Shown here: positions 5,944 to 13,875 of the stretch, in pieces
How the letters are laid out: each line of letters begins with the position of its first letter
Position numbering within the stretch: the first letter of the stretch is position 1
NCBI RefSeq assembly: GCF_901765095.1
Contig: NW_021963017.1
Coordinates: forward strand, 174,253-238,252
Origin: Microcaecilia unicolor
Lineage: Eukaryota
Reading direction: 5' to 3'
DNA length: 64,000 nt
Translations under genes and position numbers: made by a program
Notes under the pieces: generated by a model
The model's database searches: none
Seen by the model: the letters and a program-made list of their open reading frames with translations, nothing else
Told to the model about the DNA's origin: nothing

Positions 5944-6130
5944 CTTCCATATCATCAAGCTGATCAATCCATAGACTGGTGGGTTGTGTCCATCTACCAG
6001 CAGGTGGAGATAGAGAGCAAACTTTTGCCTCCCTATATGTGGTCATGTGCTGCCGGAAACTCCCCAGTATGTTCTCTATCTCAGCAGGTGGTGGTCACAC
6101 ACAGCAGCAGCTCTGGCTAGGCCTCCAAGC
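5944..6130 (+). repeat. DIRS left inverted terminal repeat
   Basis: The reverse complement of 11655-11755 matches it over more than 100 bp. Its first 36 nt are complementary to part of the internal complementary region at 11042-11077. Confidence 0.6.
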
Positions 6131-6411
6131 CTAATCCTTAGGTTTTGTTGAGGCCTGGGGTTGAGGGCTCTTTTGAGCAAGTGCAAACCTGGTGGTGCCA
6201 GGTCCCTCCTTTTCTCCCCCCTCCCGCTGGCTCCGTTAAAAAAAAAAAAAAAATTTTAAACGTCCTTAAAGGCGTTTATTTCGACGTTTATTTAAACGTT
6301 CATTGCAGCTACTCACTGGGACACCAGTTCGTTACAGCTCGGAGCGGCAAGCAGGTAATTTTACCTTTTTATAGCGGGCAGGGGGTTCCCCGATTCTTCT
6401 CCTCGTGGCAT

Positions 6412-8078
6412 ATGGCGTCGGAGGGCGAGGGCGCAAAGGGTCGCTCCCCGGATCGCTGGAGCGCTTCTAGAGGGGATGCGGGGGTTTTACAGCCTGATTC
6501 GCCCTTGATGGGTGACAGTTTAGTGACCGATGAATGTCCCGGTCCTTCCTCCGGCGTGGCGGTTTTTCCCGCCATAAACGCCCATCCCCCGCTCCTCGCC
6601 TCCGCCATCTTGGCCGGCCACGCGGCTCGGACGGCTTCTTCGTGGGCCGCCCTTGAGGTTGGAGACATTAATGCCATGAACGCCCTTAATTTGGGCGACG
6701 GCACAAAAGCGGCTAAAGTTAAGCGCCGTTCTTCCCGCGCGGCTCCTTCGCGGAGTTTCACACCGGACGCCATTTTGGATGTGCAGCATGTCTCTCCCCC
6801 GCTATTGCGAGCGCCGGTTGAGAGTGCGTCTAGGGCTGTTGCCCAGGCTGCAGAAGTGCACAGTCTGGGGGGTTTCTCCCCCGAGTTTGTTTTGCTGCTG
6901 CATCAGGCTTTCCTCATGCAAAACGCTGCCCCTGCTCCCTCGTCTGGTAAAGAGGTTGAGGTTCCCAGAGGTAACGCCCTCGGGTTGATTCCCAGGCCTT
7001 GGAGGACTTTGTCTCCTCCGATGTAGATGAGGGCAGCGTGTCTGAGGTCTCCCAACGGTCCTTTGCGGATTCCTTGGAGGAGATAGATCCCCGCTCGGAT
7101 GGAGCGGATGACCCCTCTGCAGCGCGGCTTTTTAGCCCAGAGGATTTGCCCAACCTGTTGTTACAGGCCATGGACACTTTGAAGATTTCCTCTCCGGAGG
7201 ACGTCTCTCCCTCAGCCCCTGTTGGCTCTGCCATTATGCTGGGGACGAAGCGCCCGCCTAGAACCTTCCACGTGCATGATGCCATGCACACCTTAATTTC
7301 GGCTCAATGGGATGTCCCGGAAGCGAGCCTTAAAGTGGCTAGGGCTATGTCCCGCCTCTATCCTTTGGCTGTGAGTGAACGTGAGGCCTATCTGTGGCCT
7401 ACCGTGGATTCTTTAATCACTGCGGTGACTAAGAAAACGGCTTTGCCGGTGGAAGGTGGCACGGCCCTGAAGGACGCCCAAGACAGAAGATTGGAGGCGG
7501 CCTTAAGGTCGTCCTTTGAGGCGGCTGCTTTAAGTTTGCAGGCCTCAGTTTGCGGCTCCTATGTGGCCAGGGCGTGCCTGACTATGGTGCAGCGGGCTTC
7601 CCCCTCGGATCATTCCTTGAGGGCTGATTGGCCGGCCCTGGAATCGGGCTTAGCCTATTTGGCAGACTTGCTGTATGATGTCTTGAGGGCCTCAGCTAAA
7701 GGTATGGCTCAGACAATCTCTGCGCGGCGGTGGCTTTGGCTGAAACATTGGTCTGCTGACCACGCCTCTAAATCCCGCCTGGCTGGATTGCCTTTTAAAG
7801 GCAAGCTGCTCTTTGGGGTCGAGCTGGACAAAATCGTGACCGATCTCGGCACGTCTAAGGGCAAGAAATTACCAGAGGTCAGGGCTCGGGCTAGTACTCG
7901 TCCCGGTACCTTCAGAGGACGGTTGCAGGAAGCCCGTCGGTACCGCCCGGGCAAGTCGGGCTCCTCTGCCCCTTCTTCCTTCAAGAGGAATTTCTCCCCC
8001 AAGCAGCATTCCTTTCGCAGAGACCGCCGTCCCGGAGGTGCTCCCTCCGGTCCTCCCCCAGGGTCTCGTACCCAATGA
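6412..8078 (+). CDS. DIRS ORF1, Gag-like, in two overlapping frames (6145/6412-7026 and 6999-8078)
   Basis: Long ORFs immediately upstream of RT. The frames overlap at ~7000 and the downstream end overlaps the pol frame at 8038-8078. There is no recognisable catalytic motif. Confidence 0.45.
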
Positions 8079-11965: not shown

Positions 11966-11972
11966 ACAAGAC

Positions 11973-13025
11973 CTAATACTTGGTGGCAAAACCCTTGTTG
12001 GCAAGCACAGCGGTCAGACGTCTTCTGTAGTTGATGATGAGGTTTGCACACATGTCAGGAGGAATTTTGGTCCACTCCTCTTTGCAGATCATCTCTAAAT
12101 CATTAAGAGTTCTGGGCTGTCGCTTGGCAACTCGCAGCTTCAGCTCCCTCCATAAGTTTTCAATGGGATTAAGGTCTGGTGACTGGCTAGGCCACTCCAT
12201 GACCCTAATGTGCTTCTTCCTGAGCCACTCCTTTGTTGCCTTGGCTGTATGTTTTGGGTCATTGTCGTGCTGGAAGACCCAGCCACGACCCATTTTTAAG
12301 ACCCTGGCGGAGGGAAGGAGGTTGTCACTCAGAATTGTACGGTACATGGCCCCATCCATTCTCCCATTGATGCGGTGAAGTAGTCCTGTGCCCTTAGCAG
12401 AGAAACACCCCCAAAACATAACATTTCCACCTCCATGCTTGACAGTGGGGACGGTGTTCTTTGGGTCATAGGCAGCATTTCTCTTCCTCCAAACACGGCG
12501 AGTTGAGTTCATGCCAAAGAGCTCAATTTTTGTCTCATCTGACCACAGCACCTTCTCCCAATCACTCTCGGCATCATCCAGGTGTTCACTGGCAAACTTC
12601 AGACGGGCCGTCACATGTGCCTTCCGGAGCAGGGGGACCTTGCGGGCACTGCAGGATTGCAATCCGTTATGTCGTAATGTGTTACCAATGGTTTTCGTGG
12701 TGACAGTGGTCCCAGCTGCCTTGAGATCATTGACAAGTTCCCCCCTTGTAGTTGTAGGCTGATTTCTAACCTTCCTCATGATCAAGGATACCCCACGAGG
12801 TGAGATTTTGCGTGGAGCCCCAGATCTTTGTCGATTGACAGTCATTTTGTAGTTCTTCCATTTTCTTACTATGGCACCAACAGTTGTCTCCTTCTCGCCC
12901 AGCGTCTTACTGATGGTTTTGTAGCCCATTCCAGCCTTGTGCAGGTGTATGATCTTGTCCCTGACATCCTTAGACAGCTCCTTGCTCTTGGCCATTTTGT
13001 AGAGGTTAGAGTCTGACTGATTCAC
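11973..13025 (-). CDS. Tc1/mariner-family transposase, 350 aa with a DD34E catalytic domain
   Basis: [30 protein letters not shown]... is a paired-like helix-turn-helix. The catalytic motifs [21 protein letters not shown] and [15 protein letters not shown] are present. It is close to Sleeping Beauty and Tc1 transposases from my memory of those sequences. There are no internal stops. Confidence 0.9.
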
Positions 13026-13875
13026 TGAGTCTGTGGACAGGTGTCTTTCATACAGGTGACCATTGCCGACAGCTGTCTGTCATGCAGGTAACGAGTTGAT
13101 TTGGAGCATCTACCTGGTCTGTAGGGGCCAGATCTCTTACTGGTTGGTGGGGGATCAAATACTTATTTCCCTCTGCAGAATGCAAATAAATTCATATACT
13201 TTCCACAATGTGATTTTCCGGATTTAATTTGTGATGTGCTATCTCTCACTGTTACCAATAACCTACCCTTCAATTATGGGCTGCTCATGTCTTTGTCAGT
13301 GGGCACACTTACAAAATCAGCAAGGGATCAAATACTTATTTCCCCCACTGTATGATTAATGGAAAGAAAATTATCAGGTATGATTATACATAATTTTACC
13401 TTTATGGTTTATAATGGGCTGGGAAACCCAGATCCAATAAAAAAAAAAAAAGGTATCATCTTATTTTCTTTTTCATGTTTTATTTTGTTTGATTTCTATG
13501 GATAACCTTTAAGAGTGGACTAACACGGCTACCACACCTCTCTACCCAAGGCAATAGCAAACGTGATTTTTTTGCATTCTTTCCGTTAGGAGGGGATAGT
13601 GGGAATTGGAGAGTTTTCCAGAGGTCTGTGAAGGAGGTGAAGGGTTATATGAAAAATGTTTGACGTTGCTCAACAGCTTCATTATTTCCAATGCTGTATT
13701 GTAGATTTGTGCTGTGCTATATGCCTTTAGTTTTTTTTTATGTCAATAAAGATATTTCTTCACAAAAACACTAGCAAACTCCTCGTATGACTGCCTATTT
13801 GTAGCACATCTGTAAAAAGTCTAAAGCTGTTCCACTTGGCTAGGCGCTGTCTTAAAAAGCACAGGATAAATTATT

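Follow-up and report, generated by a model that had tools for sequence, protein, structure and literature searches.

DIRS elements are very abundant in amphibians and are well described in frogs, reptiles and fish. The element considered here, a DIRS1-like retrotransposon, lies in a stretch of 64,000 nucleotides from Microcaecilia unicolor (assembly GCF_901765095.1, contig NW_021963017.1, positions 174,253 to 238,252 of the forward strand). This whole stretch is referred to below as the window, and coordinates are those of the window unless another locus is named. A preliminary description of this DNA, made from its letters alone, proposed a DIRS-like element with the characteristic architecture of inverted terminal repeats (ITRs) and an internal complementary region (ICR), disabled by an in-frame stop codon. 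The published framework for such a proposal is detailed. A 3-bp circular junction, a right extension, a four-way conserved core and a long overlap between the pol and tyrosine recombinase (YR) open reading frames (ORFs) are features of the superfamily at large (PMC3266345). The table of PMC3266345 covers 28 annotated DIRS1-like elements. AcDIRS1 from Anolis carolinensis is 5,938 bp long, with a CTT start, an AAG junction and an ICR of 40-58, and XtDIRS3 from Xenopus tropicalis has an ITR of 11+123, a right extension of 34 and an ICR of 41-65 (PMC3266345).

Positions 5944-13402 of the window, on the forward strand, almost certainly represent a single, full-length DIRS1-like element, a retrotransposon of the tyrosine-recombinase order DIRS, as judged from its repeats, domains and relatives. 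When a nested Tc1-like transposon and one TA are subtracted, the element measures 5,864 bp (5944-11757 plus 13353-13402). It encodes, in this order, a LAP2alpha-like gag, a reverse transcriptase (RT), an RNase H, a putative Dam-like domain and a tyrosine recombinase. The copy has the anatomy and the domain content of its class, an intact recombinase active site and matching relatives. Every structural hallmark of DIRS1-like elements for which it was tested was found, with the exception of the Dam-like domain, which is a candidate at sub-threshold profile scores. The proposal of a DIRS-like element with ITR/ICR architecture is therefore borne out by the inverted termini, the ICR matches and the combined RT and YR content.

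The repeats were delimited by a repeat scan over 4.5-15 kb and by BLAST of the DIRS element against the 64-kb window, which agree that the proposed ICR is complementary to both termini. The left terminus, or left ITR (5944-6072), begins with CTT at 5944-5946 and is made up of a divergent outer stretch (5944-5957) and a conserved block (5958-6072). The right terminus is split by the Tc1-like insertion. Its proximal part (11642-11757) ends in the target TA at 11756-11757, and its distal part (13353-13402) carries the divergent ITR along with a right extension of about 37 nt, ending in CTT at 13400-13402. The conserved block 5958-6072 recurs in inverted orientation at 11642-11756 with 114 of 115 positions identical, the single mismatch falling at 6064. 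With Tc1 removed, BLAST of 5945-6072 against the inverted, reconstituted right end gives a 129-column alignment with 96.9% identity. The divergent outer stretch of the ITR spans some 14-16 nt, and the right extension has no counterpart on the left.

Between the coding region and the right ITR lies the ICR, both halves of which can be traced to the element's own ends. The left half (11032-11075) is the reverse complement of 5944-5987 at 43 of 44 positions, with a mismatch at 5984 and an exact match from 11036. The right half (11073-11140) is the reverse complement of 11741-11757 joined to 13353-13402, at 68 of 68. The coordinates first proposed for the ICR (11036-11140) accordingly stand, whereas the estimated arms of about 36 and 60 nt were too short, the measured values being 40-44 and 68 nt. 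The two halves overlap in the trinucleotide AAG at 11073-11075, the circular junction, which is complementary to the CTT at both ends of the element. A core of 17 nt, AGCTGATCAATCCATAG, is present without change in four places, 5958, 11045 (reverse strand), 11124 and 11740 (reverse strand), and no others, and thus in both ITRs and both ICR halves; only 0.25 chance matches would be expected even if up to 3 mismatches were allowed. The 3' spacer (11141-11641), which separates the ICR from the right ITR, contains small CCCGC-loop-GCGGG hairpin motifs. About six of these hairpins lie at 11350-11565, several with TTCG-like loops, spaced 30-60 nt apart and partly arranged in 38-nt tandem units; RNA folding of the spacer is not significant (z = -1.64).

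The flanks of the element read acaa/CTT...CTT/tatgg, with no target-site duplication past the shared trinucleotide. The predicted sequence of the locus without the DIRS element is ...AGAAATACAACTTTATGGTTTATAA..., and that of the DIRS element without Tc1 is ...GATCAGCTATGATTAATGG.... A 58-nt inverted repeat (95%) at 5372-5429 and 13442-13499 brackets the whole element, and its arms stand 553 nt apart once the DIRS element is removed, with no obvious target duplication. The DIRS element may thus sit inside a foldback element of about 670 bp resembling a miniature inverted-repeat transposable element (MITE), giving a three-level nest of Tc1 in DIRS in MITE.

The pol frame extends from 7840 to 9978 on the forward strand (713 codons), at +1 relative to gag and with a 239-nt overlap with it. 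The RT domain, at about 8365-8856 with its YLDD motif at 8698, matches RVT_1 at 4e-17 to 2e-19, above the Pfam threshold. RNase H follows at about 9181-9396, with TDAS at 9193, and both enzymes are of the Ty3/gypsy-related type. Its RT_RNaseH match (8e-4 to 2e-3) is below the cut-off in the window copy, but the domain is present in 15 of 15 aligned homologues, the best at 9e-8. A putative Dam-like 'MT' domain at about 9553-9753 is a sub-threshold match to PF05869 (4e-3 to 8e-3, 16-17 bits against a cut-off of 28 bits) and is matched in 2 of the 15 homologues; the region itself is strongly conserved across the family in the homologue alignment. No protease or DDE integrase match was found in pol (rve, RVP, E<=0.01). 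The identity of pol is 57% to the pol of the caecilian Rhinatrema bivittatum and 37-49% to 13 other intact homologues. Compared with these 14 sequences, all invariant columns are kept, YLDD and TDAS included, with the exception of a TAG codon within RT at 8806-8808. This codon aligns with Lys in 14 of 14 homologues and also in the Rhinatrema copy, and a single base change from AAG to TAG explains it. Judged from the alignment, it reads as a true nonsense mutation of a family-invariant Lys. It is the sole stop between 7840 and 9978, in keeping with the earlier statement that RT and RNase H share one frame broken only there. No ATG occurs in the pol frame upstream of 8446. The Rhinatrema element has the same +1 offset and a long overlap too, so this late ATG may reflect a native mode of expression rather than damage.

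The recombinase ORF (9099-11018, forward strand) lies at -1 relative to pol and overlaps it by about 880 nt, which agrees with the different, overlapping frame noted in the preliminary description. Its first ATG is at 10014, from which it would encode 334 amino acids (homologues, 325-353), and its catalytic domain spans about 10401-10937. The frame is open for some 300 codons upstream of this ATG, which has a chance of about 1e-5 as estimated from base composition. The window recombinase alone matches Phage_integrase at 4e-3. Like that of RT_RNaseH, this match falls below its Pfam cut-off, and both are backed instead by homologues and a family profile. All of the Cre-type catalytic residues are present; numbered along the translation of 9960-11015, they are R160, K192, H289, R292, W315 and Y325. 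At E<=1e-5 the recombinase has 129 homologues. Within the best 120 of these 129, all with a named species are amphibian or reptile, and several are labelled PF00589/PF13495 or 'Tyr recombinase'/'Core-binding'. A profile built from 28 homologues matches Cre/Tre (3.5e-6 to 1e-5), and the match takes in the core-binding part as well as the catalytic one.

The gag ORF (6975-8078, forward strand) contains a LAP2alpha-like domain at 7263-7850 (PF11560, 5e-17). This match is expected, because the mammalian LAP2alpha-specific domain is derived from a DIRS1-like gag (Abascal 2015, PMC4495291). A search of a large database with gag as the query returned nothing at E<=1e-8, and gag relatives were instead drawn from the gag-pol fusions matched by pol. 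Frog gag-pol proteins align from 6978, the start of the gag open frame, in which no ATG occurs before 7170. Upstream lies a further open frame in frame 1 (6142-7026, forward strand, first ATG 6412). It contains a short motif, FSPEFVLLLHQAFL (6874-6927), that is common to the Rhinatrema copy and shows a weak colinear match to frog gag N-termini (E about 1). Comparisons of the gag N-terminus with Rhinatrema (tblastx and DNA alignment) and with frog N-termini (short-word tblastn) were colinear and suggestive, yet too short (E values of about 0.3-1.3), and the Rhinatrema element carries damage of its own. On weak evidence, the 6142-7026 frame may be a displaced N-terminal part of gag. Taken together, the frog alignment from 6978, the lack of an ATG before 7170 and the upstream motif in another frame suggest, on weak evidence, a gag frameshift or lost start as a third lesion of this copy.

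Among the matches listed, the closest proteins are those of Rhinatrema bivittatum, followed by proteins of frogs, salamanders, turtles, lizards and snakes at 40-50%. The window element counts as a new family within a superfamily that is already well characterised, and its anatomy agrees throughout with published descriptions. It is placed in a family of its own because its protein identity to anuran and reptile homologues is only about 40-50% (AcDIRS1 and the XtDIRS elements were compared by their published dimensions). The Rhinatrema DIRS copy fetched for the best match is 5,795 bp long and lies on chromosome LR584389.1 (positions 4180-9974 of the locus L001). Its identity to the window element is 61% for YR, 57-59% for pol and 44% for gag. 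Layout and gene order are the same (its ITR measures 123 nt, and its ICR has halves of 44 nt and 65 nt), and the ICR and terminal sequences of the two elements are recognisably homologous. The frame offsets are also equal, with pol at +1 relative to gag and YR at -1 relative to pol, and the recombinase ORF has 630 codons in both. The overlapping frame pairs fall at 7840-8078 and 9099-9978 in the window, and at 6210-6478 and 7533-8382 in L001. The Rhinatrema copy differs in its junction, which is apparently AAA/TTT rather than AAG/CTT, in lacking the GC hairpin motifs of the 3' spacer altogether, and in having a stop of its own in gag and a frameshift in pol. The same Rhinatrema locus holds at least three further DIRS fragments or termini, at 1-2806, 11999-12096 and 15045-17425, and illustrates the clustering or nesting of DIRS elements in caecilian DNA.

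The insertion that splits the right terminus is a Tc1/Sleeping-Beauty-like DNA transposon of 1,593 bp at 11758-13350, on the reverse strand, recognised by its terminal inverted repeats (TIRs), TA duplications and transposase. The transposase is uninterrupted and 340 amino acids long (12995-11973, reverse strand; HTH_SB 6e-25, HTH_Tnp_Tc3_2 1e-22, DDE_3 2.5e-14). The TIRs are of the IR/DR type and identical at 200 of 200 positions, each with an internal 21-22-nt direct repeat 173 nt apart, and TA duplications flank the transposon at 11756-11757 and 13351-13352. Since the right ICR spans the insertion point, the pre-insertion sequence, ...CAGC-TA-TGATT..., is preserved within the element, which confirms both the Tc1 boundaries and the TA target. 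The preliminary description held that Tc1 had landed on the single TA exactly at the ITR/ICR junction motif, and this does not hold. Over its final 68 nt, the right terminus contains nine TA dinucleotides. The one that was hit lies 52 nt from the end of the element, at the outer edge of the core, and is not the AAG/CTT circular junction. With its identical TIRs and uninterrupted transposase, the Tc1 is younger than the DIRS copy. The nested Tc1 appears intact and could be a currently active natural element; no second copy of it is present in the window.

The established replication model for DIRS elements (Cappello 1985; Poulter & Goodwin), as summarised in PMC3266345 and PMC7192593, can be mapped onto the window element, in which every sequence feature that the DIRS-1 model requires is present and precise. 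By homology with DIRS-1, an RNA missing the outermost ends would be transcribed from the element and copied by its RT/RNase H into single-stranded cDNA. The ends of this cDNA would anneal side by side on the ICR, the left end at 11032-11075 and the right end at 11073-11140. Serving as splint and template, the ICR would restore the termini and join the circle at the 3-nt CTT/AAG. The Cre-like tyrosine recombinase would then recombine the circle junction with a CTT in the genome, so that the insert would have CTT at each flank and no target-site duplication. In Dictyostelium, the ICR is essential by experiment, and the cDNA intermediate is for the most part linear and single-stranded (PMC7192593).

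As for the condition of the copy, the preliminary description considered it probably dead but recent, and both halves of this view are upheld. Read from its sequence, the window copy is non-autonomous, since a change of AAG to TAG at 8806-8808 would leave it unable to make its own reverse transcriptase. The in-frame stop is nevertheless not the sole lesion, because Tc1 also interrupts the right terminus, and the gag frame appears to have no usable start. Otherwise the enzymes show no blemish, and the recombinase active site is intact. The internal repeats differ at 2 of 227 compared positions, which indicates that the copy is young and was inserted recently; with so few differences, any insertion date carries a roughly ten-fold uncertainty.

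The best-surviving alternative holds that the copy is not completely dead. Pol from sister copies could act in trans to reverse-transcribe its RNA, and for transcripts ending upstream of 11757 the ICR could restore a right end free of Tc1, so that intact progeny could still arise. In favour of this, the recombinase ORF, the two termini and the ICR show essentially no damage, and the right ICR crosses the point where Tc1 inserted, with 17 nt of complementary sequence upstream of it. For Dictyostelium DIRS-1, moreover, RT has been examined for action in trans, the element's proteins complete retrotransposition from supplied cDNA, and the ICR is needed to restore ends that are missing from the transcript (PMC7192593). 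Such a rescue is nonetheless unlikely. The sequence complementary to the right ICR that precedes Tc1 amounts to merely 17 nt, gag appears damaged as well, and BLAST reveals no sister copy of this DIRS family within the window. The rescue would further depend on where the transcripts have their 3' ends. Slightly less probable again is the full outcome, in which a transcript ending just upstream of Tc1 would be healed by ICR templating and, with pol in trans, would yield Tc1-free full-length progeny. If true, such progeny would constitute a natural example of self-repairing DIRS termini, a corollary of the standard model.

A very improbable alternative to the DIRS1-like assignment is another type of YR element (Ngaro, PAT-like or VIPER), or a Crypton DNA transposon beside an unrelated gypsy-like RT. 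All four also encode a YR, and Ngaro, PAT and VIPER additionally encode RT and RNase H. However, Ngaro, PAT-like, VIPER and Crypton elements have split direct repeats or none, not inverted termini with an ICR (PMC3266345), and the termini of the window element are inverted, with an ICR that matches both. Split direct repeats (A1-B1 ... A2-B2) were rejected in the repeat scan, where long direct repeats were limited to those implied by the ICR. Gag, pol and YR are also colinear in an independent relative, which has equal frame offsets and lies between the same kind of repeats, and the putative Dam-like domain follows RNase H as in DIRS1-like elements and PAT but not in Ngaro. Programmed read-through or recoding at the TAG of pol, which its standing as the sole stop in an otherwise perfectly conserved 713-codon frame would suit, is rejected as equally improbable, since the codon lies inside the RT domain, away from the gag-pol boundary, at a position that is Lys in every aligned homologue and the Rhinatrema copy.

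Certain observations weigh against the assignment of the window element as a full-length DIRS1-like retrotransposon that moves in the manner of DIRS-1. Three of the four enzymatic Pfam matches of the window copy alone (RT_RNaseH, Dam and Phage_integrase) are below curated thresholds. A single-sequence PDB search with the recombinase was without match, and the homologue profile was used in its place. A paralogous empty site crossing the DIRS insertion junction, which would prove the exact boundaries, was not found within the window. Lastly, retrotransposition experiments are confined to Dictyostelium DIRS-1 and include no vertebrate element (PMC7192593).

Further DIRS pieces are scattered through the window. 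The preliminary description took 25615-27060 to be a second, truncated copy of the same element. A truncated DIRS piece is indeed present there (25617-27030, reverse strand), made up of the end of pol, the recombinase and the initial half of an ICR and truncated at both ends, but it is not the same element. Its identity to the main element is 64.5% at the nucleotide level over 866 columns (BLAST). At the protein level, tblastn recovers it as four pieces in different frames at 49-73% amino acid identity, or about 50-60% overall. With this divergence and multiple frameshifts, it was rejected as a copy of the main element and assigned to an older, different DIRS family. The fragment breaks off inside the ICR at about 25617. 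It is adjoined by a 501-nt near-perfect palindrome at 24898-25398, with 249-nt arms (95%) and a 3-nt spacer; this palindrome is GC-rich, contains internal 75-nt-spaced repeats and is unique within the window. Just past the 5' truncation of the fragment, microsatellite-like (GATA)n and a long imperfect GA/GT-rich repeat occur at 27488-27564 and 27771-27997. A 3' fragment of a further DIRS family, from a partial right ICR to the right terminus, lies at 20017-20951 (reverse strand), with about 80% identity to the main right terminus and ICR. Between its ICR and its right terminus, a long GC-rich inverted repeat was seen by eye at 20280-20700, centred near 20520, which may represent either the insertion of a foldback element or a structure particular to that family. 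A terminus-like DIRS piece is also found at 17144-17237. In the caecilian Ichthyophis bannanicus, DIRS is the most abundant transposable-element superfamily, making up 26-30% of the genome, and the DIRS density of the window agrees with this high content of a caecilian genome (PMC8498967).

The value of the locus is mainly one of annotation, as a clean, nearly intact copy can serve as a seed for a family consensus. It could also help to date when DIRS and Tc1 were recently active in the host genome, and it provides a teaching case in which the ICR keeps the pre-insertion sequence of a Tc1 target. The nested, apparently intact Tc1 may be of more practical interest than the DIRS element itself.

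Compared with described systems, the window element (5,864 bp, CTT/CTT/AAG, ITR about 14+115, right extension about 37, ICR 44-68) resembles in its dimensions the tetrapod DIRS1-like elements (Piednoel et al. 2011), such as AcDIRS1, XtDIRS2 and XtDIRS3. Elements of this kind measure about 5.6-6.2 kb and have NTT termini and a complementary 3-bp junction. Also shared are a short divergent ITR followed by a conserved ITR of 100-140 nt, the absence of a left extension, a long pol/YR overlap and an HSTR motif in the recombinase. The right extension of 26-34 nt and the ICR halves of about 40 and 58-65 in AcDIRS1, XtDIRS2 and XtDIRS3 are slightly exceeded by the window element (about 37, and 68 for the right ICR). 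The founding member, Dictyostelium discoideum DIRS-1, likewise has inverted, non-identical termini and a single ICR that is complementary to its start on the left and its end on the right, its halves measuring 33 and 55 nt against 44 and 68 here. It too encodes RT, RNase H and a YR, and it has a methyltransferase-like domain. However, its ITRs are about 300 nt long, the element is 4.8 kb in length, its ORFs are arranged differently and its proteins are only distantly related. Finally, the recombinase resembles Cre/Tre of phage P1 in that the R, K, H-x-x-R, W and Y residues occupy almost the same positions. This similarity is nonetheless remote (E about 1e-5, profile against sequence), and the recombination site in the window element, unlike that of Cre/Tre, would be a 3-nt core.

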